From Patescibacteria group bacterium (GTDB lineage: Bacteria > Patescibacteriota > Kazan-3B-28), in the NCBI GenBank assembly GCA_028717565.1, contig JAQUNP010000002.1:90054-154053 (forward strand): a stretch of DNA of 64,000 nucleotides, given 5' to 3'. A program made the position numbers and the translations under genes. The notes under the pieces were generated by a model that was given only the letters and a program-made list of their open reading frames with translations, had not been told where the DNA came from and did no database searches. Position 1 is the first letter of the stretch. Every line of letters begins with the position of its first letter. Positions 6,528 through 58,856 of this stretch are shown here, piece after piece.

Positions 6528-6553
6528 GATTCCTTCATTTAAACTTTAAGAAA

Positions 6554-6584
6554 TAAACGGCTCGATTCTCGAGCCGCTTATTTT
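6554..6584 (+). terminator. Intrinsic terminator (divergent member of the ACGGCTC...GAGCCGT hairpin family)
   Basis: TAAACGGCTCGA-TTC-TCGAGCCGCTTA followed by TTTT. Confidence 0.75.
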
Positions 6585-6783: not shown

Positions 6784-7491
6784 ATGAGCAATAGTGAAAG
6801 ATTTTTAGCTGCGTTTAATCGGATTGAGAAACATCTGGCTTCGCTGCGTCGTGGCTACGGACATCGAGGGATGCGTGAACTTTTGCGGCGGTTGCGAAAT
6901 CGCTATAAATTAGTGCGGGTGTTTGAGGAAGATTTGCGAGAGTTTTCCGAACTGCGCAATGCCATAGTACATCGGACTACCGGGCAAACTATTGCTGAAC
7001 CCAAACTAGCAACAGTTGACAGAATAGAACACATTGCTCGGGCATTGATCAATCCGCCTTCAGTGATGGAGATTGCGTCCAAACCGGTGTTTGTCTGTGA
7101 CATTAAAACGAGTGTGGACGCGGTGGTGAAAAAAATGGCGGAAAAAGAGTTTGAGCATGTACCGGTGTATAATGGCAAAAATTTTGTGGGCGTTTTCTCC
7201 GATATCTCCATTATGAAGTGGTTGGCGGCCAGGGCTGGTAGTTGTGAACTGAGCCGGCTGACAATGAATGATATGAAGGCCTACCTAGACAAACCGGATT
7301 TAGGCGTCAATGGTTATCAGTTTGTACCGAGGAGGATGGATATATTTGAACTGCAGGATCGGTTTTTGTCTTTTATGGATGAAAAGAAGCAGTTGGGAGC
7401 TCTATTTATTACAGAAACGGGTAAGCGGAGTGAGCCGGTTTTGGGAGTGGTAACACCCAGAAGTTTGCCCAAGATCAAACAACTGAAATAA
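6784..7491 (+). CDS. HEPN-like (Rx4H) N-terminal domain fused to a CBS-pair domain
   Basis: The N-terminal ~95 aa are helical with ELRNAIVH (R58-x4-H63, nt 6955-6972). The C-terminal part has CBS-type blocks (FEHVPVYNGKNFVGVFS, PVLGVVTPRSL). Confidence 0.7.
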   Translation: MSNSERFLAAFNRIEKHLASLRRGYGHRGMRELLRRLRNRYKLVRVFEEDLREFSELRNAIVHRTTGQTIAEPKLATVDRIEHIARALINPPSVMEIASKPVFVCDIKTSVDAVVKKMAEKEFEHVPVYNGKNFVGVFSDISIMKWLAARAGSCELSRLTMNDMKAYLDKPDLGVNGYQFVPRRMDIFELQDRFLSFMDEKKQLGALFITETGKRSEPVLGVVTPRSLPKIKQLK

Positions 7492-9110: not shown

Positions 9111-10481
9111 ATGGCAAAAAAGAGTTTTGCAGGGAAACGGATAGCTGTCATCGGGCTCGGCAAAGAGGGTCTGGATTTGGTTATGTTTTTGCATCGTGAA
9201 GGTGCCCAGGTAATGGTATTGGATAAAAGTACACCCAAGGCCTTGGGGGCTAATTATACGGTGGCTAAAAAGGCTGGTGCCAATTTTAACCTAGGTGCCC
9301 ATTATCTAGCCGATCTAGCAAGGTTTGATATCATCTTTCGTTCGCCTGGAGTGCCTTTGGACACCCCGGCACTAAAGGCGGTGGCAAAAAAGGTGCCGAT
9401 GAGTAGTGCTATCCGATTGTTTATGGAGCGGTGTCCGGCAAAGATGGTGGGGATTACGGGCACCAAGGGCAAATCAACTACTACGGCTTTGGTTTATCAT
9501 TTGTTCAAAGGGCATAAACGGGTGTGGTTGGCAGGTAATATTGGTGTGGCGCCTTTGCAGCTTTTAACCAAGTTAAAGAAGAGTGACATAGTTGTTTTGG
9601 AGCTGTCGAGTTTTCAGCTAGAGGATGTAAGGATGAGTCCGCACGTGGCGGTGCTTTTGAATGTAGTGCCGGAGCATTTGGACCGACATGGGACTTTCGC
9701 CAAATACTTAAAAGCTAAACAAAATATTTTTACACATCAGGGTAAAAGTGATTGGCTGGTAGCTAGTCGTGATTTTGAGGTTACTCGTGAAGCTTTAAAA
9801 AAATCTAGGGCTAAAAAATTTGGCTATTCTACTCGCAAGGTTTTGGATCGGGGGTTGTATTTGGCAAAAGACAAGATTGTGTATCGCGATGTGCGCACGG
9901 GCAAACGGCGAGAGGTAATTGATAGAAAAGAGGTGTCTTTATTGGGCGAACACAACCTGCAAAATATTTTGCCGGCGGTGGCGGTAGCACTGACGCAGCG
10001 AGTGCCGCTAAAGCACATTGTTAAAAAACTAAAAACCTTCAAGTCACTTCCCCACCGGTTAGAATTTGTGCGAGAGAAAAAAGGGGTGTTGTTTGTAAAT
10101 GATTCTTTGGGGACTACGCCAGAAGCGGCTATTGCGGCTACGGAAAGTTTTGCTTATACCAACGTGGCGCTCATAGTTGGCGGGGTATACAAAGGAGGAG
10201 ATATTGATGCTCTAGCGAAGGCGGCTCAAAAACACGGGGTCAGGTTTGTGGCCTTGATTGGCAAGTCGACACCACTTTTCTACAAAAGCTTCAAGAGATA
10301 TGCTCCGGATGTAAAGACGGAGGGCTTCCCACACCTGCGTGCGGCAATCAAGGGGGGCTTTGGGGCTGTGAAAGACCGAGGTGGGGTGGTAATATTGGCG
10401 CCAGCCGCTGCTAGCTTTGATATGTTTAAAAATGCTTATGAACGAGGGGATCAGTTTCGGGACTTGGTGAAGAGGTTATAA
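9111..10481 (+). CDS. murD: UDP-N-acetylmuramoylalanine--D-glutamate ligase
   Basis: Rossmann-like N-terminus (RIAVIGLGKEG). Mur ligase P-loop GITGTKGKSTT. dcw order places it before ftsW. Confidence 0.92.
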   Translation: MAKKSFAGKRIAVIGLGKEGLDLVMFLHREGAQVMVLDKSTPKALGANYTVAKKAGANFNLGAHYLADLARFDIIFRSPGVPLDTPALKAVAKKVPMSSAIRLFMERCPAKMVGITGTKGKSTTTALVYHLFKGHKRVWLAGNIGVAPLQLLTKLKKSDIVVLELSSFQLEDVRMSPHVAVLLNVVPEHLDRHGTFAKYLKAKQNIFTHQGKSDWLVASRDFEVTREALKKSRAKKFGYSTRKVLDRGLYLAKDKIVYRDVRTGKRREVIDRKEVSLLGEHNLQNILPAVAVALTQRVPLKHIVKKLKTFKSLPHRLEFVREKKGVLFVNDSLGTTPEAAIAATESFAYTNVALIVGGVYKGGDIDALAKAAQKHGVRFVALIGKSTPLFYKSFKRYAPDVKTEGFPHLRAAIKGGFGAVKDRGGVVILAPAAASFDMFKNAYERGDQFRDLVKRL

Positions 10482-10635
10482 TAGGTAGGTGACCCCGTAG
10501 AGAATTTTAGAATTGTTTTTTATAATGCAATCAGTTTAGTTTTGCACACTTGGATGTGGTGTATGGGTGGGGGTTGGTTTTTATATTAAACTTCAAAAAC
10601 AAAAGCATTATTTTTTTAAAATCTTCTACAGGGTG
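10477..10635 (+). promoter_or_regulatory. Promoter-leader module copy 1 (upstream of ftsW), bounded by an imperfect inverted repeat
   Basis: TATAAT (10477-10482), then CCCCGTAGAGAATTTTAGAAT (10493-10513), then TAAAATCTTCTACAGGG (10617-10633), which abuts an in-frame GTG. A homologous module lies at 57237-57392. Confidence 0.6.
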
Positions 10636-11814
10636 AAAAATTATCACCGACAAGATAACTACTTGGCATTGGTCATACTGGGGCTGGTGATTTTTGGTTT
10701 GATTATGGTGGCATCAGCATCGGTGGTACAGTCCTACGAAGCAGCTGGAACTAATAATTATTATTTGATTCGCCAAGCTATCTTTGCCGGGGTCGGTCTG
10801 TTTTTTTGGTGGGTTTTTCAAAGGATTGATTATAGGTATTGGAAGCGTTATGCTACCATCTTTTTGGCGGTTGGTGTTATCGCATTGTTGCTAGTGCTGG
10901 TGCCAGGTATCGGTGTAGAGGCGGGTGGTGCCAAACGTTGGATAAACTTGGGCTTTTCAACACTGCAGGCCAGTGAGTTAATGAAGTTTGGTTTAATAGT
11001 ATATTTTGCTTACTGGTTTGAGAAAAAGGGTAGGGAAATCGGGGATTTTTATAAAACCTTTTTGCCCTTCTGTGTGATTGTAGGCGCGATATTTCTTTTG
11101 GTCATGCAGGGGCCAGACCTGGGCACAGCTACGTTGATAGCGATTATTGCGGGGGTGATGTACATGGGAGCTGGAGCTACCTGGGGACAGCTGGGTATTT
11201 TATTTTTTGGTGGCCTAAGTGCTATTCTGGTGCTGATAAAAGCGGCGCCGTATCGGTTCAGGCGATTGCTAACTTTTTTGAACCCGGGAGCTGATCCGCT
11301 CGGGGCGGGGTATCATATTAATCAGGCCTTGTTAGCTATCGGTAGTGGCGGCTTGTTCGGTTTGGGATATGGACATAGTCGGCAAAAATATAATTTTTTG
11401 CCGGAAGCGGCCTCTGACTCTATCTTTGCAGTAATTGGTGAGGAGTTGGGGTTGATTGGTACGGTCTTTTTGGTACTTTTGCCATTCGCTTTTATTGTGT
11501 GGCGAGGACTAGTGGTAGCCAGAAGGGCGCCAGATATGTTCGGACGGATGTTGGCTTTGGGTATTACCACTTGGATTGGTTTGCAGGCGGTGCTCAATAT
11601 GGGTGCGACTGTGGGTATGTTGCCGTTAACGGGTGTGCCTTTGCCGTTTGTGTCCTTGGGTGGCAGCTCGCTAGTCATTATGTTGATGGCGGCGGGTGTC
11701 CTCTTGAATATTTCCAAGCAAACTGTTACAACATCTAGAGATGAAAGTCCTTTTAGTGGGTGGTGGAACTGGGGGGCACGTGATGCCGACATTGGCCGTA
11801 GCCGCCGCTCTTAA
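10633..11814 (+). CDS. ftsW: SEDS-family peptidoglycan glycosyltransferase FtsW/RodA
   Basis: 10-TM SEDS pattern (GAKRWINLG, PDLGTA, LPEAASDSIFAVIGEELG, TGVPLPFVSLGGSS). The GTG at 10633 is preferred over the ORF-track start 10567, which lies inside the leader repeat. The 3' end overlaps murG by 74 nt. Confidence 0.85.
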   Translation: MKNYHRQDNYLALVILGLVIFGLIMVASASVVQSYEAAGTNNYYLIRQAIFAGVGLFFWWVFQRIDYRYWKRYATIFLAVGVIALLLVLVPGIGVEAGGAKRWINLGFSTLQASELMKFGLIVYFAYWFEKKGREIGDFYKTFLPFCVIVGAIFLLVMQGPDLGTATLIAIIAGVMYMGAGATWGQLGILFFGGLSAILVLIKAAPYRFRRLLTFLNPGADPLGAGYHINQALLAIGSGGLFGLGYGHSRQKYNFLPEAASDSIFAVIGEELGLIGTVFLVLLPFAFIVWRGLVVARRAPDMFGRMLALGITTWIGLQAVLNMGATVGMLPLTGVPLPFVSLGGSSLVIMLMAAGVLLNISKQTVTTSRDESPFSGWWNWGARDADIGRSRRS

Positions 11815-15736: not shown

Positions 15737-16018
15737 ATGAATGGTTTGCTGATCATCGTTGGTATCGGGCTGCTAGCATGGATTTGGTTGGGACATCGGC
15801 ATGTACCGGAGTTTGGTGTGCACAGCGAAAAGGAAGAGCGGCTGGCAGCGGGGCTAATGCTGCTGCGTAAAAACAAAAGTTTGACCAACGCTCAGTATCG
15901 CAAGGTGGCTAAGGTGTCGGAAGCCCAGGCCACTCGGGATTTAGATCTGTTGGAAAGGGCAGGAGTAATTGTGCAGCAGGGCAAGGTCGGACGGTTTGTA
16001 AAGTATGTTTTGAGGTAA
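15737..16018 (+). CDS. Small membrane-anchored winged-HTH protein
   Basis: N-terminal TM (LLIIVGIGLLAWIWL). C-terminal LTNAQYRKVAKVSEAQATRDLDLLERAGVIVQQGKVGRFVKYVL resembles a wHTH. Confidence 0.5.
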   Translation: MNGLLIIVGIGLLAWIWLGHRHVPEFGVHSEKEERLAAGLMLLRKNKSLTNAQYRKVAKVSEAQATRDLDLLERAGVIVQQGKVGRFVKYVLR

Positions 16019-16020
16019 AA

Positions 16021-16049
16021 TTCAATGGCTCATTTTTTGAGCCATTGAA
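16021..16049. terminator. Hairpin-family terminator (TTCAATGGCTCA-TTTTT-TGAGCCATTGAA)
   Basis: Perfect 12-bp stem with A/T runs on both sides. Confidence 0.8.
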
Positions 16050-16052
16050 AAT

Positions 16053-29357: not shown

Positions 29358-29422
29358 AATTAGATATTTAGATTATCGTCTAAATAATAATGTAAAAAAT
29401 TTTGGTTGTCAAATAGTTTAAA

Positions 29423-29451
29423 ATCAACGGCTCAAAATATGAGCCATTGAT
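29423..29451. terminator. Hairpin-family element (ATCAACGGCTCA-AAATA-TGAGCCATTGAT)
   Basis: 12-bp stem with one G-U pair. Same family as 16021, 41992, 42579 and 55274. Confidence 0.7.
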
Positions 29452-29524
29452 TCCCCCCGCATTTATTGCCCCTGCGAATCATTTAGAGTATCGTGGGGTA
29501 TTGATATAATCTAGATGTTGTCAG

Positions 29525-41787: not shown

Positions 41788-41991
41788 CTTTTTGCCACCA
41801 TTTGTATCGGCAAACGGTGGCCCAAACCTCCCTCCTGGTTCCGTGAGCTGACTCATTGGCTGATTTGTCTTACCGCTAATGGTCGAAACTCGCCTTCAGC
41901 TCAAACATCTCCCCGCGACAACAAATCAGCTCAATGTCGTTTCCATCTCACTCCACAAGTCGGCGTGGTAGGGAAGAAATATCTTAATATT

Positions 41992-42018
41992 TCAATGGCT
42001 CAAGATTTGAGCCATTGA
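41992..42018. terminator. Hairpin-family element (TCAATGGCTCA-AGATT-TGAGCCATTGA)
   Basis: Perfect 11-bp stem. Forms the left flank of the zinc-ribbon cassette. Confidence 0.7.
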
Positions 42019-42070
42019 GTTTTTGGCCAAGGGGGAGAGAAAAGCAGGGTATACTTACTCAATTTTTAAC

Positions 42071-42497: not shown

Positions 42498-42578
42498 TTT
42501 TTCCTCCTTTAACAAACGGAGGTCTCCAAGACCCCCATTGTTGGAATGCCTCCAGAGTACACGTGGTAGCTATTTTTT

Positions 42579-42606
42579 TCAACGGCTCAAGTTTTGAGCC
42601 GTTGGA
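42579..42606. terminator. Hairpin-family element (TCAACGGCTCA-AGTTT-TGAGCCGTTGGA)
   Basis: Same family as 41992 and 55274. Forms the right flank of the zinc-ribbon cassette. Confidence 0.7.
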
Positions 42607-42615
42607 TTTTTGGGT

Positions 42616-42661
42616 AAAAAAGAACCGCACCGGCTGGGTTGGAACCAGCGCATGGTGCGGT
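42616..42661 (-). terminator. 46-nt structured terminator, copy 1
   Basis: The minus strand reads ACCGCACC-ATGCGCTGGTTCCAACCCAGCC-GGTGCGGT-TCTTTTTT. It matches 49011-49056 at 45 of 46 nt. Confidence 0.8.
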
Positions 42662-46280: not shown

Positions 46281-46432
46281 TTGACTGGCACTCGGGCACG
46301 GATTCTGTTTTCCTATAAAACTCTTGAGCGTTTGCAGCAGTTGTCGATATCGTTTTTTGATAAAACCCCACCGGGCTGGATACGCGAGAGGATCTTTGGC
46401 GGCATCGGAGAGGTCTTTGGGAAAAACTGACT
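46281..46432 (+). pseudogene. Relic fragment of an MsbA-like ABC transporter gene (paralog of 55425-57212)
   Basis: About 150 nt align by eye to 55706-55857 at roughly 85% identity. The frame is intact for 51 codons (LTGTRARILFSYKTLERLQQLSISFFDKTPPGWIRERIFGGIGEVFGKN*). It has no start and is truncated at both ends. Confidence 0.8.
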
Positions 46433-48970: not shown

Positions 48971-49010
48971 AGTACTATGGTGTTGTTTGATGATCGGGCA
49001 GATTTTGAAT

Positions 49011-49056
49011 AAAAAAGAACCGCACCGGCTGGGTTGGAACCAGTGCATGGTGCGGT
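49011..49056 (-). terminator. 46-nt structured terminator, copy 2
   Basis: Matches 42616-42661 at 45 of 46 nt. Confidence 0.8.
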
Positions 49057-55246: not shown

Positions 55247-55273
55247 GACCATTGAATTAATTGAGATGATAAA

Positions 55274-55302
55274 ATCAACGGCTCAAGTTTTGAGCCGTTG
55301 AT
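55274..55302. terminator. Hairpin-family terminator, canonical copy (ATCAACGGCTCA-AGTTT-TGAGCCGTTGAT)
   Basis: Perfect 12-bp stem with A-run and T-run flanks. Confidence 0.8.
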
Positions 55303-55424
55303 TTAGGTATACAAACAGTCGCCGGTTGGCGACTACATATACATTTTAACAAATTGAGTCGGATTTGTCGCGATTGTGCGAATTTGGGTGGCTGGTAGAA
55401 TTGGAGTGTATTTTTAATTTTTTC

Positions 55425-57212
55425 ATGAAAGAAATTAAGCGAATTTGGTTTGAGTCCAAGCCACTTCATCCTGCTTTGTGGGGGATGTTGGGCTTGTCGG
55501 TTTTGGTGGCGCTATTAGATTTGGTAGCCCCCTGGTTTTATCGCGAGTTAGTGAACTTTTTAACTACTGGCCAAGCCAGTCCTTTTTTTGCCAGATTCTT
55601 GCCGACCGAGAATGGAGTGCTGTTTTTGCTGTGGTGGGTAGTTATTTATTTTGGCATTGATTTAATCACTATCACAGCGGGACAGGCCAAGTTTTTTGTG
55701 ATGTCTTTGACTGGTACCCGAGCGCAGATTCTGTTTTCGTATAAAACTCTTGAGCGGTTGCAGCAGTTATCGATATCGTTTTTTGACAAAACTCCGCCGG
55801 GCTGGATACGCGAGAGGGTTTATGGCGGTATCAGAGAGATTTTTGGGATTTTACAGTCCTTGATAGTCGATGTTCTGCCACTGGTTATTAACCTGGTGGT
55901 AGCGGGAGTGGTGTTATTTGTGTTTAACAAGATTTTGGCTTCAGTGTTTATTGCGGTGGCGCCAATGTATGTGGGGCTGTCGATTTGGCGGGCCAAAATC
56001 ATGAGGGCGTGGCAAAAAAAGATTCGGACCAAGGCCGAACAGGAGGGTAAAACATTTTTTGAAAATATCAGTTACTATCAATTGATTCGTGAATTCGCGC
56101 GCGAGGATTTTGAGCTGAAACGACTGGGGACTGTGCAGAGTCAGATTATGAGGTTGCGGCTGAGACAAGAGATGTTCATGCGCTGGAGTGGTTTGGCCAG
56201 AGATTTTTTGCAAATTGTAATTTACGCTTGGGTATACGGCTTTGGAGGGTATTTGGTGTTAACTCAAAAGCTTTTGGTGGGAGATTTGGTATTGTTTATT
56301 GCTTATCTCGGTAGAGCTTTAGGCCCACTGGGGCGGGTGATGCAGATTTATGACAGTATTCAAGTCGGCCTGGTAGCTGTGGGCAGATTATTTATGGTTT
56401 GGGACAAGCGGGATAAGGTTACAGATGTGCCAGATGCCAAATCCTTGGCAGTGAGAGAGGGGAGAATTGAGTTCAAGCATGTAGGATTTGTATATAAGGG
56501 AGGTAGGAGATACAAAGGTGAAAAGACGATTTTCAAAGATTTCAATTTGCATATTAAGCCAAAGGAAATCGTGGCTGTAGTGGGGCCTTCGGGTGTGGGC
56601 AAATCGACTTTAGTTAAGCTGCTGCTACGTTTTTATGACGTAGACAAAGGACGGATATTAGTGGATGGTCAAGATATCAAAAGTGTAACGCAGCAGTCAC
56701 TCAGGCGGCAGGTCTCGGCAGTGATGCAAGATGTGATTACGTTTAATCACACTGTCCAATATAATTTACGCTATGGCAATCCCCGGGCAACGGATCAGGA
56801 GGTGGCGAGAGCTAGCCAAGTGGCGAACTTGTATAACTTCGTTATGTCTCTGCGTAGTAAATTCAAAACCCGGATTGGTGAACGAGGGGTCCGGCTGTCG
56901 GGTGGCGAAAAACAACGTTTAGGTATTGCTCGGGCGCTTTTGAAAGATGCTCCGATATTAATTTTGGACGAGGCAACGTCAGCACTGGATAGTGAAAATG
57001 AAAGGATGGTTCAGGATGCGATGTGGGAATTGATCAAGGGCCGGACGGCAATTATCATTGCGCATCGGCTGTCTACTGTGAAAAAGGCCGACAGGATTTT
57101 GGTGCTGGAGGGGGGTAAGATTATAGAGCAGGGTACGCATCAGGCATTGATGAAGCGAAGTGGGTACTATCGCCGCCTGTTCAAGATGCAAGGAGAGATG
57201 CTCTCAGATTAG
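55425..57212 (+). CDS. ABC transporter, fused permease/ATPase (MsbA-like exporter)
   Basis: Six TM helices plus an NBD with Walker A GPSGVGKST, signature LSGGEKQR and Walker B ILILDEATSALD. Confidence 0.92.
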   Translation: MKEIKRIWFESKPLHPALWGMLGLSVLVALLDLVAPWFYRELVNFLTTGQASPFFARFLPTENGVLFLLWWVVIYFGIDLITITAGQAKFFVMSLTGTRAQILFSYKTLERLQQLSISFFDKTPPGWIRERVYGGIREIFGILQSLIVDVLPLVINLVVAGVVLFVFNKILASVFIAVAPMYVGLSIWRAKIMRAWQKKIRTKAEQEGKTFFENISYYQLIREFAREDFELKRLGTVQSQIMRLRLRQEMFMRWSGLARDFLQIVIYAWVYGFGGYLVLTQKLLVGDLVLFIAYLGRALGPLGRVMQIYDSIQVGLVAVGRLFMVWDKRDKVTDVPDAKSLAVREGRIEFKHVGFVYKGGRRYKGEKTIFKDFNLHIKPKEIVAVVGPSGVGKSTLVKLLLRFYDVDKGRILVDGQDIKSVTQQSLRRQVSAVMQDVITFNHTVQYNLRYGNPRATDQEVARASQVANLYNFVMSLRSKFKTRIGERGVRLSGGEKQRLGIARALLKDAPILILDEATSALDSENERMVQDAMWELIKGRTAIIIAHRLSTVKKADRILVLEGGKIIEQGTHQALMKRSGYYRRLFKMQGEMLSD

Positions 57213-57236: not shown

Positions 57237-57392
57237 TAATATAGGTTTATGCCCCGTAGAGAATTTTAGAATGATTGTGTAGTAATGCTACAGCATACCA
57301 GCGATCATTGGACATCCTCGGGGTTATAATGAGGATAGTGGTTCGGATACGGCATAATCATAAGCATTGCTTTCTAAAATCTTCTACAGGGT
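57237..57392 (+). promoter_or_regulatory. Promoter-leader module copy 2 (upstream of proS)
   Basis: TAATAT (57237-57242), then CCCCGTAGAGAATTTTAGAAT (57252-57272), then TCTAAAATCTTCTACAGGG (57373-57391), with the ATG at 57393. Homologous to 10477-10635. Confidence 0.6.
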
Positions 57393-58856
57393 ATGAGTAA
57401 AAAAGGAACTAACAGCGAGAGTGAAAAAAGTATAACTAGTCGAGAGGCGGACTATGCCCAATGGTATCAGGACGTAATTAGAGCGGCGGATTTGGCCGAA
57501 AACTCGCCGGTTAAAGGCTGTATGATCATCAAGCCCAATGGGTATGCGATTTGGGAAAACATGAAAGAGGTGTTAGATGATCTGATTAAGTCGACGGGAG
57601 TGAGAAACGCTTATTTTCCTCTGCTGATTCCAGAAAGATTTTTGCAGAAAGAAGCGGAGCACGTGGAAGGTTTTGCCCCGGAGATCGCGGTGGTGACTCA
57701 CGCCGGCGGCAAAAAATTGACCGAGCCATACGTGGTGCGGCCGACTTCGGAAACAATTATTAATGATGCCTTTTCAAATTGGATACAGTCACACAGAGAT
57801 CTGCCGATGCTCATTAACCAATGGGCAAATATTGTTCGGTGGGAGATGCGGCCGAGATTGTTTTTGAGAAATACAGAATTTTTGTGGCAAGAGGGTCACA
57901 CTGCACATGCAACGGAAAAGGAAGCGGATGAGCGGGCTTTAATGATGCTAAAAATGTATGAAGATTTTATGCGGGAGTATCTGGCAATTCCAGTTGTGTC
58001 TGGTAGGAAAACTGAAAACGAGCGCTTTGCTGGTGCTAAGGAGACCTATACGGTGGAAGCCATGATGCAGGATGGCAAGGCCTTGCAAATGGGTACCTCG
58101 CACAATTTGGGGCAAAATTTTGCCAAGGCCTTTGACATTACTTTCGCTGATGCCAAAAGTGGTCAGCAGAGCTTTGTGTGGCAGACCAGCTGGGGTGTGA
58201 GTACTCGAATGATTGGAGGTTTGGTGATGGCACATAGTGATGACACAGGGCTAGTTTTGCCACCAATGATAGCTCCAACACAGGTAATAATCGTGCCGGT
58301 GTTGTCCGGTAAGGCCGCGACAGACAAGGCGGTTCTGGCCCAGGCCGACACAATACTGGATGAGTTGGAAAACGAGGTGTTGGTGAGAGTTTTGGTGGAT
58401 ACTAGTGAAGAGCGGGTAGGTGCCAAGTTTTTCAAATGGGAAAAGCAGGGTATTCCACTACGAATTGAATTGGGGGCAAAGGACATGGAGGCCAAGCGGG
58501 CGGTTTTGGTACGGCGGGACACAGGTGAGAAAGAAGAAGTGGCTCTAACTAACCTGGGCGCACGAGTAGCGGATGTATTGGGTGAAATCCAAGCCGAGAT
58601 GCTACAGCGAGCAGAAAAGATGCAAAAGGCCAAGACCAAAACTGCTGATAGCTGGGATGAGTTTGTATCCTTGCTAGAGAGTGGACATTTTGTGTTGGCT
58701 CATTGGTGCGGGGACAGCCAAGTGGAGCGTGAGATCCAAGAAAAAACTGGTGCTACCATTCGCTGCATTCCGTTTAAGCAAAAGGCCGAGAAGGGAAAAT
58801 GCATCCTAACTGGCAAAGCCAGTGGCGGCCGAGTCGTGTTTGCAAAAGCATATTAG
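57393..58856 (+). CDS. proS: Proline--tRNA ligase (archaeal/eukaryote-like type)
   Basis: Class II motifs (FRNTEFLWQEGHTAH, GTSHNLGQNF). C-terminal zinc/ProRS-C1-like domain ending FAKAY. Confidence 0.95.
   Translation: MSKKGTNSESEKSITSREADYAQWYQDVIRAADLAENSPVKGCMIIKPNGYAIWENMKEVLDDLIKSTGVRNAYFPLLIPERFLQKEAEHVEGFAPEIAVVTHAGGKKLTEPYVVRPTSETIINDAFSNWIQSHRDLPMLINQWANIVRWEMRPRLFLRNTEFLWQEGHTAHATEKEADERALMMLKMYEDFMREYLAIPVVSGRKTENERFAGAKETYTVEAMMQDGKALQMGTSHNLGQNFAKAFDITFADAKSGQQSFVWQTSWGVSTRMIGGLVMAHSDDTGLVLPPMIAPTQVIIVPVLSGKAATDKAVLAQADTILDELENEVLVRVLVDTSEERVGAKFFKWEKQGIPLRIELGAKDMEAKRAVLVRRDTGEKEEVALTNLGARVADVLGEIQAEMLQRAEKMQKAKTKTADSWDEFVSLLESGHFVLAHWCGDSQVEREIQEKTGATIRCIPFKQKAEKGKCILTGKASGGRVVFAKAY

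Follow-up and report, generated by a model that had tools for sequence, protein, structure and literature searches.

MITE-like insertions at the start codons of ftsW and proS as probable members of a Patescibacteria family of small mobile elements

Results

Two element copies at ftsW and proS

The window analysed here is a 64,000-nucleotide (64-kb) stretch of a Patescibacteria genome. It holds two copies of an element of ~140 nt, at 10493-10633 in front of ftsW and at 57252-57391 in front of proS, with identical arms and diverged interiors. A first-pass annotation had described a two-copy repeat with this layout, and every feature that it described is present where it was placed, including the -10-like boxes at 10477-10482 and 57237-57242 and the start codons GTG 10633 and ATG 57393. 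The 21-mer CCCCGTAGAGAATTTTAGAAT occurs exactly twice in the window, at 10493 and 57252 (chance expectation 0, 100 shuffles), and the 3' arms, (T/C)TAAAATCTTCTACAGGG, are located at 10615-10633 and 57373-57391. A covariance model built from the element family found two matches in the window, at 108 and 94 bits, with the next best at 10.6 bits. The similarity of the two interiors is close to random; judged by sequence comparison, these are not recent copies of one another. The ftsW coding sequence is 10633-11814, and its start agrees with that of NCBI's 393-aa FtsW (P0241). The features of the two loci are as follows.

10477-10482, forward strand: TATAAT, the -10 box of the host's leaderless ftsW promoter, outside the element (from the sequence; TATAAT, 6 nt and GTG are arranged alike in the element-free closest relative, L192)
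10489-10500, forward strand: original ftsW start GTG (10489-10491) and mini-ORF GTG ACC CCG TAG, whose stop falls within the 5' arm of copy 1 (from the sequence and flank comparison)
10493-10633, forward strand: element copy 1, 141 nt, ORF-less (covariance-model match, 93.9 bits)
10493-10511: copy 1, 5' arm, helix P1
10513-10520: copy 1, 5' strand of helix P2, TTGTTTTT
10522-10528: copy 1, 5' strand of helix P3, ATAATGC, followed by the variable interior
10595-10602: copy 1, 3' strand of P2, AAAAACAA
10605-10611: copy 1, 3' strand of P3, GCATTAT
10615-10633: copy 1, 3' arm, P1
10633-10636, forward strand: rebuilt ftsW start, the element's final G plus TG giving GTG (10633-10635)
57237-57242, forward strand: TAATAT, the -10 box of the host's leaderless proS promoter, outside the element (from the sequence and element-free proS relatives)
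57248-57269, forward strand: upstream TATG (57248-57251), original proS start ATG (57249) and mini-ORF ATG CCC CGT AGA GAA TTT TAG (M P R R E F stop), terminating within the 5' arm of copy 2
57252-57391, forward strand: element copy 2, 140 nt, ORF-less (covariance-model match, 108 bits)
57252-57270: copy 2, 5' arm, P1
57273-57279: copy 2, 5' strand of P2, GATTGTG
57283-57288: copy 2, 5' strand of P3, TAATGC
57353-57359: copy 2, 3' strand of P2, CATAATC
57364-57369: copy 2, 3' strand of P3, GCATTG
57373-57391: copy 2, 3' arm, P1
57392-57395, forward strand: downstream TATG duplicate, with the proS start ATG at 57393 (proS coding sequence 57393-58856)

The first-pass annotation had also considered that the element carries a promoter. 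We found instead that promoter and start, both leaderless in type, are the host gene's own and comprise the -10 box, a 6-nt spacer and the upstream start codon. The upstream flanks of the two copies are alike because both targets have this architecture of -10 box, 6 nt and start; elsewhere in the family, upstream flanks are unrelated. For both copies, a consensus promoter and terminator scan was uninformative, with no full -35/-10 host promoter and no outward promoter from the arms. The sequence TAAAAT in the 3' arm was rejected as an element-borne promoter, as it lies 12 nt from the start codon, a distance that precludes a leaderless transcript. The placement of the element in a 5' leader finds support: given its position between the -10 box and the start codon, it most probably forms the 5' end of the mRNA. 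The old and new starts are 144 nt apart in both copies and in frame, but an in-frame N-terminal extension was discarded given the TAG in the 5' arm. Both copies are ORF-less: reading on from the host start codon, each frame that it opens runs into stops in the interior. At ftsW, the stop codon of murD (TAA, 10479-10481) lies inside the -10 box TATAAT.

Direct repeats and element-free relatives

Each copy is flanked, outside the arms, by a short direct repeat that was absent from the first-pass annotation: TGA at ftsW (10490-10492 and 10634-10636) and TATG at proS (57248-57251 and 57392-57395), both of which contain the TG of the start codon. Across the element family described below, a direct repeat of 2-4 bp was found at each of ~25 sites (TATG, TGGA, TTGA, TGTG, ATG, TGG, TGA, TG or ATGA), always including a start codon's TG; those of L170, L172 and L191 were read by eye, the automated tables having imprecise element coordinates. 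A duplication of such variable length is unusual for a staggered cut of the transposase type.

We also identified relatives in which the same sites are empty. In the closest ftsW relative, L192 (87% at the amino acid level), the site reads TATAAT-6nt-GTGAAGAAC..., which equals the window minus the element and minus one TGA; in full, it is TATAAT-gttttg-GTGAAGAACTATCATAGACAAGATAAC, with no element. In a Kazan relative (L193), murD and ftsW are separated by a gap of 4 nt and the site is empty, and three proS relatives (L166, L167 and L169) have an empty site consisting of a -10 box, 6 nt and ATG. For the two window loci, the empty sites were reconstructed as ...TATAATAGGTAGGTGAAAAATTATC... and ...TAATATAGGTTTATGAGTAAAAAAGG.... 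A regulatory module common to ftsW and proS, as first suggested, finds no support here; the downstream genes are unrelated, and relatives keep the promoter and start without the element. The alternative reading offered at the time, a MITE-like element with terminal inverted repeats, proved essentially right, with both duplications and empty sites found.

Folding and covariation of three helices

The arms of the window copies pair over 19 positions, including one G.U pair and two mismatches (17/19 paired), and both copies fold into a closed hairpin, in agreement with the earlier proposal of a long stem up to the start codon. Across the family, the arms are nearly invariant 19-bp imperfect terminal inverted repeats, CCCNGTAGAGAATTTTAGA ... 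TCTAAAATCTTCTACNGGG; the invariant bases of the family lie in helix P1, and the internal G.U/A.C irregularity of P1 is itself invariant. The islands of identity TAATGC and AAGCATT, which had been pointed out in the interiors, are present and constitute the two strands of a covarying helix, P3.

Covariation analysis, proposed with the first-pass annotation as a check, showed compensatory changes that maintain pairing in P1 (the arms), in P2 and in P3, and P2 and P3 cross each other. Paired cells amounted to 85.9%, compared with 77.1% in shuffles (0/500 reach the observed value) and 40-48% with slid partners, and 20 pairs showed changes on both sides (0/500 shuffles). In a partner-swap duplex test, true partners were more stable than swapped ones for both P2 (-8.8 vs -5.8 kcal/mol, p <= 5e-5) and P3 (-8.2 vs -4.4 kcal/mol, p <= 5e-5). 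On the 3' side, P2 and P3 are spaced by only 1-5 nt, which leaves hardly any room for both to form in full at once. The balance of G.U and A.C pairs gave no indication of the folding strand or of RNA versus DNA, and both strands fold well. The Rfam search that had likewise been proposed returned no matching family for either copy: at gathering and permissive thresholds the only match was one tRNA elsewhere in the window, and an E-value search of both copies gave chance-level matches only (E > 5).

A family of insertions at gene starts

One genome scan and one metagenome scan, followed by arm pairing, yielded ~25 distinct insertions in Patescibacteria (Kazan-related lineages); most single-arm matches of these collection scans were chance matches in unrelated phyla. 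About 20 members are ORF-less and 133-149 nt long; derivatives measure 79 and 181 nt, and one member 310 nt. In addition to the two window copies, the same organism has a third on L033, which sits at the host's own RNase III gene, and L030, L099 and L136 carry two each.

Nearly all insertions occupy a start codon or promoter position of unrelated housekeeping genes, typically leaderless ones. The downstream genes are genuine and unrelated, and their products include FtsW, ProRS, RNase III, a TrxB-like protein, a LepA-type GTPase, bS20 and PMM, as well as a PBP, a class II aaRS, Obg, LeuRS, Def and RmuC. The motif TAnnnT lies exactly 6 nt before the start codon at 13/25 sites, compared with a window background of 1.0% (binomial p 6e-20), and 23 copies are co-oriented with the gene as against 2 reversed (p = 2e-5). 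An absolute orientation rule was ruled out by the reversed copies L078 and L099b, and strict start-codon targeting by copies at -35 hexamers, L030a upstream of tRNA-Met and L136b upstream of greA, and by the copy on L101, at a transcription start ~100 nt upstream of rpsU. The first-pass annotation had held that many copies at random positions with target-site duplications would mark a plain MITE. Many copies with duplications were indeed found, and random placement was not: the sites are start codons, transcription starts or -35 hexamers, so that neither description, plain MITE or dedicated leader, fits the element. The gene trxB is possibly occupied by the element in two genomes.

A coding form with a GIY-YIG nuclease gene

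A ~310-bp form of the element carries, between the same arms, a gene for an 89-97-aa single-domain GIY-YIG nuclease (Pfam PF01541 only, E = 3.6e-16). Five further cassettes lie between start-codon copies and have the same or related arms; all 6 coding versions found between these arms, from different genomes, are GIY-YIG, and the product of this coding partner with the same ends is not of a known transposase class. The protein family is strongly conserved, with >328 homologues of 85-105 aa, and the predicted model (pLDDT 90) has a UPF0213/Slx1-like GIY-YIG fold; among solved structures, UPF0213 (1zg2, 1ywl) and Slx1 come nearest, with weak E-values. Short form and cassette have homologous ends, and a deletion intermediate was also found; the 140-nt copies are ORF-less derivatives of this autonomous-looking GIY-YIG form.

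In the cassettes, the mini-ORF stop in the 5' arm falls 1-7 nt before the nuclease AUG, and M-P-x-R-E-F is the commonest frame; the frame and stop of the proS mini-ORF recur in other TATG-class members and in GIY-YIG cassettes. Between the end of the nuclease ORF and the duplicated host start codon lie 0-22 nt, a spacing that would allow translational coupling of the host gene. We found no GIY-YIG copy in the 64-kb window or on L033, and no larger version with a partner arm up to 2 kb away.

Discussion

Taken as a whole, these observations are best explained if both copies are non-autonomous, MITE-like members of a Patescibacteria family of small mobile elements, an explanation that we consider quite probable. 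We weighed it against three others.

The first of these is that the element acts as an intervening sequence at the RNA level, with RNase III cutting at P1, or self-cleavage, restoring a leaderless or nearly leaderless mRNA, so that the insertion is tolerated. The 19-bp stem, extended by P2, does end exactly at the start codon, the organism does encode an RNase III, whose gene itself carries the third element copy, and the invariant G.U/A.C irregularity of P1 is of a kind contained in some RNase III processing signals. On the other hand, no ribozyme family matches either copy, and after a cut in P1 some 8-10 nt of arm would still precede the AUG, which would not be 5'-terminal. Moreover, the duplications and empty sites at the DNA level stay unexplained, and RNA-level removal, unlikely as a full account, therefore at best complements the mobile-element explanation.

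A dedicated cis-regulatory leader RNA (a riboswitch, thermosensor or protein-binding leader), whose mobility would be ancient or irrelevant, seems a little less likely still. It would account for the compensatory changes that maintain P1, P2 and P3, for P2 and P3 being mutually exclusive like the helices of a switch, for a structure kept despite the divergence of the interior, and for the fixed site directly before the start codon with its biased orientation. That site and orientation are broken by two reversed copies and by insertions lying at -35 hexamers or ahead of a tRNA gene, however, and the genes served have no common function. No conserved unpaired nucleotides were seen that could form a ligand pocket, the invariant bases being in P1, and Rfam holds no match. 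Precise empty sites in close relatives, target-site duplications and a protein-coding version with identical ends also argue against such a leader.

An ordinary MITE moved by a DDE-type transposase, with its preference for start codons arising from selection in a compact genome, would fit a small element that recurs within genomes and has terminal inverted repeats and short duplications, but is very improbable: none of ~25 sites lies after a stop codon or upstream of a promoter, where insertion would be at least as harmless, the only coding version between the arms is the GIY-YIG nuclease (6 cases in different genomes), the search for a partner arm up to 2 kb away returned no larger version, and the duplication varies in length. 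Three further candidates were discarded. A self-cleaving ribozyme of a known class or a group I or II intron was rejected, with no known catalytic core matched in the Rfam search; codon-matched ribosome bypass was rejected, with the codons after the duplication differing between the take-off and landing sides in some members; and an integron attC site was rejected, with no GTTRRRY core in the arms and the elements at the 5' ends of core genes, ftsW and proS among them, in conserved operons.

Returning to the mobile-element explanation, an Ssn-like GIY-YIG nuclease, specific for both structure and sequence, could mobilise the coding and the ORF-less forms by recognising the folded element ends, probably as single-stranded DNA. 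Against such a role, we know of no transposition chemistry for a GIY-YIG nuclease acting alone, which forms no covalent intermediate and carries out no strand transfer, and no GIY-YIG copy that could act in trans was found in the window or on L033. The element would have neither a promoter nor a ribosome-binding site of its own and would use those of the host. In the coding form, the host start codon would open the mini-ORF and the nuclease would then be made by termination-reinitiation or, alternatively, by in-frame fusion, in a third frame; the host gene, in turn, may be translated by coupling to the nuclease ORF. In the ORF-less window copies, the host promoter would yield an RNA starting at the old start codon, and ribosomes translating the 3-6-codon mini-ORF would open P1, making the rebuilt start at the base of the 3' arm accessible. 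Cleavage of P1 by RNase III may offer another route to host expression. Any effect on ftsW and proS would thus be a side effect of a tolerable selfish insertion, not a dedicated regulatory design. By analogy, the arrangement may work like the CaMV ribosome shunt, T4 gene 60 bypass and coupling by unmasking, in that the stop of a tiny ORF lies at or within a large closed stem with the real start directly behind it; those systems differ in organism, ribosome and the leaderless start. Against the explanation as a whole, the kept structure, the covariation of P2 and P3 and the possible recurrence at trxB suggest selection beyond simple parasitism.

More tentatively, and with somewhat greater doubt than confidence, we propose that the family represents a new class of mobile element. 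Its sole protein would be the ~90-aa GIY-YIG nuclease, its targets transcription starts, start codons and sometimes -35 hexamers, possibly chosen as promoter DNA opened or distorted by RNA polymerase, and its ORF-less descendants would keep mutually exclusive helices. Within such a class, the host's leaderless AUG would drive the mini-ORF, then the nuclease, then the host gene, and the exclusivity of P2 and P3 would let ribosomes or an RNase pass from the old start codon to the rebuilt one; a DNA parasite would in effect behave as a removable 5' leader. A full-text literature search, which covered few subscription journals, found no description of such an element. If true, this would add a GIY-YIG-based type to the short list of prokaryotic transposition systems and would give a role to a large, uncharacterised set of tiny Patescibacteria GIY-YIG proteins. 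The target is unusual in that the first base pairs of essential genes are occupied without killing them. The family also offers a natural experiment on leaderless translation and re-initiation in unculturable organisms. In the annotation of CPR genomes, such elements give rise to spurious "5' UTRs", to start codons in duplicate and to small ORFs ahead of core genes.

The closest known system is Ssn/NTS. Ssn proteins are single-domain GIY-YIG nucleases that are flanked by inverted hairpin repeats (NTS/SRM), cut only single-stranded DNA and were noted as IS-like (Chenal et al. 2025, Nat Commun, PMC11893778). The element family shares with Ssn a single-domain GIY-YIG protein of ~90 aa, inverted repeats that bracket the gene, an architecture that the Ssn authors call identical to insertion sequences, and ORF-less repeat copies scattered near genes (PMC11893778). 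Recognition of folded single-stranded DNA by structure plus sequence, of the Ssn type, would be a plausible way of reading the element ends, and small nucleases with site and structure specificity are potentially interesting tools, a case already made for Ssn (PMC11893778). Unlike the flanks described there for Ssn, which are self-contained hairpins of 20-50 nt, those of the element pair with each other over 19 bp. The element also has target-site duplications, precise empty sites and co-oriented positions at start codons or transcription starts, to which nothing comparable was found in the accessible part of PMC11893778. Ssn is CDD family cd10448, of which the element protein may be a member; its best sequence and fold matches are UPF0213 and Slx1.

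The Correia/NEMIS elements of Neisseria are co-transcribed MITEs that form a long mRNA hairpin, a possible RNase III substrate, and can alter the expression of neighbouring genes. Like them, the element lacks an ORF, measures ~100-160 bp, is bounded by terminal inverted repeats and a short duplication, and occurs more than once per genome. Correia insertions are found at TA in many intergenic positions, in either orientation, and to our knowledge have no coding partner; the element family differs in its start-codon and promoter targets, its GIY-YIG coding form and the two additional helices that covary. IS200/IS605 elements rely on an HUH Y1 transposase and subterminal hairpins and insert beside a fixed tetra- or pentanucleotide with no target duplication, whereas the element family has terminal inverted repeats, a target duplication and a GIY-YIG protein. 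It resembles these elements and their REP/PATE-like derivatives in its very small size, its orientation bias, its non-autonomous hairpin derivatives and, as we infer for the element, ends read as folded single-stranded DNA; IS200/IS605-type elements are also discussed in PMC11893778. Like the seg genes of T4-like phages, which encode free-standing GIY-YIG homing endonucleases, the coding form is a small selfish gene between host genes that relies on host expression signals. Homing endonucleases have a DNA-binding domain, lack inverted-repeat ends and duplications, and spread only to the same locus by homology-directed repair. Unlike the seg genes, the element family is found at many unrelated genes.

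Two inserted copies of one element at ftsW and proS

The paired repeats before ftsW and proS are probably non-autonomous members of a GIY-YIG cassette family that inserted at the start sites of these genes. Three copies lie in or next to the window:

10493-10633: copy 1, before ftsW; 3' arm at 10615-10633
57252-57391: copy 2, before proS; 3' arm at 57373-57391
About 66,070-66,118, ~2 kb past the window end (17056-17105 of L033, a locus of the same organism): third copy, TGGA class, at the rnc (RNase III) start codon

The window contains exactly two instances of the 21-mer CCCCGTAGAGAATTTTAGAAT (starts 10493 and 57252; zero matches in shuffles), each with its imperfect reverse complement 104-105 nt downstream. 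Each copy is predicted to form a single closed hairpin with its foot at the start codon (-33.1 and -48.1 kcal/mol; z-scores -1.7 and -3.7), as the first-pass annotation had proposed; it had also described diverged interiors, and in our alignment of the two copies the arms are identical and the interiors poorly alignable. Searching the window with a covariance model built later from family members recovered these two copies alone (94 bits for copy 1 and 108 for copy 2; next match 10.6 bits). That annotation had recognised no known riboswitch or leader here, and Rfam searches of the copy regions likewise gave no match at either threshold.

Direct repeats outside the arms, a feature absent from the first-pass annotation, mark the junctions (slashes) of both copies. 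Copy 1 reads GGTGA/CCCC...CAGGG/TGAAAA, duplicating TGA, and copy 2 reads TTTATG/CCCC...CAGGG/TATGAG, duplicating TATG. Both duplications include all or part of the start codon; the GTG of copy 1 is rebuilt from the last G of the element and TG.

Empty sites in relatives

Relatives with empty sites provide the classical proof of insertion. The closest FtsW relative (L192, 87% at the amino acid level) reads TTGACA...TATAAT-gttttg-GTGAAGAACTATCATAGACAAGATAAC with no element. The window site reads TATAAT-aggtag-GTGA/element/(G)TGAAAAATTATCACCGACAAGATAAC, and subtracting the element and one TGA makes it collinear with L192. In a Kazan relative (74%) the murD-ftsW gap is 4 nt, and the three nearest proS relatives (67-69%) show a -10 box followed by 6 nt and then ATG, leaving no space for the element. 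FtsW of the window organism is closest to "candidate division Kazan" proteins. In a Kazan-type relative (L195/L196, 3117-4656), a reverse transcriptase gene (RVT_1) sits beside a bAvd-like gene ~6 kb upstream of ftsW, an arrangement resembling a diversity-generating retroelement.

Family members and their insertion sites

Members of this family occupy start or promoter positions, where insertion has left a duplication; they occur in coding and non-coding forms and share a conserved fold. Scanning 185,579 species genomes with CCCYGTAGARRATTTTAG yielded 31 single chance matches and one Patescibacteria MAG with a complete element (TCCA/CCCC...GGG/TCCA in contig orientation, TGGA in gene orientation). 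A metagenome scan, with arms paired by script and then the covariance model, gave at least about 20 distinct ORF-less members, mostly 133-149 nt long, with outliers of 79 and 181 nt among the matches listed. Perfect 3' arms followed by TATG in L041, L098, L105 and L165, for which a 5' arm is absent over 2 kb and the model gives no match, could be solo ends or chance matches. In the IMG/VR contigs L154 (4934-5067), L086, L156 and L159, the 19-mer CCCAGTAGAGAATTTTAGA is part of a different unit that repeats at a distance of 116 nt; this unit has no partner arm and a weak model score (24 bits).

We oriented copies by arm type before reading duplications. Every copy has a 2-4-bp duplication containing TG (TATG, TGGA, TTGA, TGTG, ATG, TGG, TGA or TG), and in most this TG is part of a real gene's start codon. 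The occupied genes have no function in common: FtsW, ProRS, RNase III, a TrxB-like reductase (two different genomes), a LepA-type GTPase, bS20, phosphomannomutase, a PBP, a class II aminoacyl-tRNA synthetase and Obg. The two trxB-like sites (L046 2611-2755 and L100 953-1096, both at the start codon) differ in element interior and in duplication (ATG versus TATG); they may reflect one old insertion common to both genomes or repeated targeting of this gene.

A TAnnnT hexamer lies exactly 6 nt before the start codon at 13 of 25 sites (p = 6 × 10−20, against a background of 1.0% of any ATG/GTG/TTG triplet in the window), which is the signature of leaderless genes. The window genome has Shine-Dalgarno-led genes alongside leaderless ones such as murD (TATAAT-ggatct-ATG). 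The first-pass annotation had assigned the shared -10 box and AGGT to the element; the box instead belongs to the host promoter, and the resemblance between ftsW and proS comes from their both being leaderless genes with a 6-nt spacing. The ftsW -10 box contains the murD stop codon (10479-10481). The window gene starts at 6784, 9111, 21451, 50370 and 59194 illustrate the mixture of Shine-Dalgarno-led genes and leaderless ones (TAnnnT box, exactly 6 nt, ATG).

Three copies depart from start-codon siting, all still at promoter positions:

L030a: interrupts a tRNA-Met promoter in its -35 hexamer, TGGACA
L136b: interrupts the promoter of a leaderless greA in its -35 element, TTGACA
L101: ~100 nt upstream of rpsU, with a -10 box 6 nt before the insertion

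Orientation relative to the gene is biased, not absolute: 23 copies are co-oriented and 2 reversed (p = 2 × 10−5), namely L078 and L099b, of which L099b has one decayed arm.

A coding version with a GIY-YIG nuclease

The 310-nt member L113 contains an 89-aa ORF with a GIY-YIG domain (E = 3.6 × 10−16), whose homologues include more than 328 proteins of 85-105 aa, mostly from Patescibacteria. Five further cassettes were retrieved, before leuS, rmuC, def, a membrane protein gene and a Wzy-type gene; all are framed, like L113, by the arms and start-codon copies, and two of the five have diverged arms and an ATGA duplication. The protein family has 63% mean identity with invariant GIY, YIG, Arg, His and Glu positions, and its structural model (pLDDT 90) has a GIY-YIG core, the best solved matches being UPF0213 and Slx1. 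Over ~35-40 nt at either end, ORF-less elements align with the cassette termini, and a 79-nt copy (L030b) retains the 3' coding end of the cassette; the window copies are therefore ORF-less derivatives of the cassette.

Compensatory changes support three helices

We performed covariation analysis across relatives, as had earlier been suggested, and found compensatory changes in the arm helix P1 and in two interior helices, P2 and P3. One P2 strand directly follows the 5' arm and the other is found ~25 nt short of the 3' arm (UUGAUUAU with AUAAUCAA; UUGUUUUU with AAAAACAA in copy 1; CCGCCCGGC with GCCGGCCGG in L136b). P3 pairs TAATGC with GCATT, AAUAUUUCC with GGAAAUAUU, or AUGUGUCC with GGACAUAU, so two of the interior identity islands that the first-pass annotation had noticed, TAATGC and AAGCATT, are the strands of a covarying helix. 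In a 15-sequence alignment, 85.9% of cells pair, versus 77.1% in shuffles (0/500 reach the observed value) and 40-48% with slid partners. Twenty pairs changed on both sides (0/500 shuffles), including 7/9 in P2 and 9/9 in P3, and partner-swap tests gave p ≤ 5 × 10−5 for each of these helices. In P1, double changes run from G-C to A-U in L099a and from U-A to A-U in L136a and the cassettes, and an invariant G.U adjoins an A.C.

The strand order P1-P2-P3...P2'-P3'-P1' makes P2 and P3 cross. Because only 1-5 nt separate P2' from P3', the two are more likely to be alternatives than a full pseudoknot. The closed form is predicted for DNA and for both RNA strands, and wobble counts gave no indication of which strand folds.

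Hypotheses for expression

Our proposals for expression and transposition are hypotheses drawn from sequence. The element appears to lack a promoter or ribosome-binding site of its own, and what we see looks like a short-range re-initiation relay that would use the host's leaderless start. The commonest frame from the host start codon reads AUG CCC NGU AGA GAA (A/U)UU UAG, its stop lying 1 nt before the nuclease AUG in cassettes L113, L172 and L173; diverged cassettes have a mini-ORF (M-N-P-V-V-E/D-F-stop) ending 7 nt before it. The UAG within GUAG terminates a second frame, and the third is continuous with the nuclease frame. Between the end of the nuclease ORF and the duplicated host start codon lie 0-22 nt, and in L181 the TGA of this ORF overlaps the host ATG. 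The window copies have corresponding mini-ORFs:

10489: copy 1, GTG ACC CCG TAG
57249: copy 2, ATG CCC CGT AGA GAA TTT TAG

Ribosomes translating them would unwind P1, making the rebuilt start codon accessible. Alternatively, RNase III, which this organism encodes, could cut P1. The third copy sits on rnc itself, the gene for the enzyme that would cut such stems.

Comparison with known systems

The first-pass annotation had weighed a promoter-leader module against a MITE-like element, and the latter is closer: the arms, duplications and empty sites all agree with it. The one MITE test with a different outcome concerns the coding partner, which encodes no known transposase, so the element is not a plain MITE. 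Of the promoter-leader module, the hairpin up to the start codon stands, while the -10 box is the host's; a riboswitch-type leader is very unlikely, given that the genes have no shared function and that relatives have empty sites. There was no match to a known ribozyme or intron, and the element is not an attC site.

The nearest precedent for its proposed DNA cutting and joining is the Ssn family. These GIY-YIG enzymes of ~94 aa act on single-stranded DNA alone, cutting beside a specific hairpin, and their genes are bracketed by such hairpin repeats in an arrangement the authors term IS-like (PMC11893778). The protein type and the repeat-bracketed gene are common to Ssn/NTS and our element, which differs in the long-range pairing of its ends, its duplications and empty sites, and its targeting of start sites. 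Full-text literature searches, of incomplete coverage, returned no description of it. We regard it as IS/MITE-like selfish DNA, a known kind, with a real chance that its mobilisation and targeting mechanism is new.

Other repeats in the window

Six copies of a ~30-nt palindrome, TCAACGGCTCA-N-TGAGCCGTTGA, represent a repeated terminator-like hairpin, possibly another small repeat family (6549-6582, 16017-16050, 29419-29452, 41987-42020, 42574-42607 and 55270-55303). A 54-nt repeat (94% identical; 42608-42661 and 49003-49056) has a hairpin, ACCGCACC...GGTGCGGT, beside an A-run, each copy just downstream of a minus-strand gene. Finally, a 142-nt direct repeat (87% identical) occupies 46281-46422 and 55707-55848, the second copy within the ABC-transporter ORF at 55365-57212.
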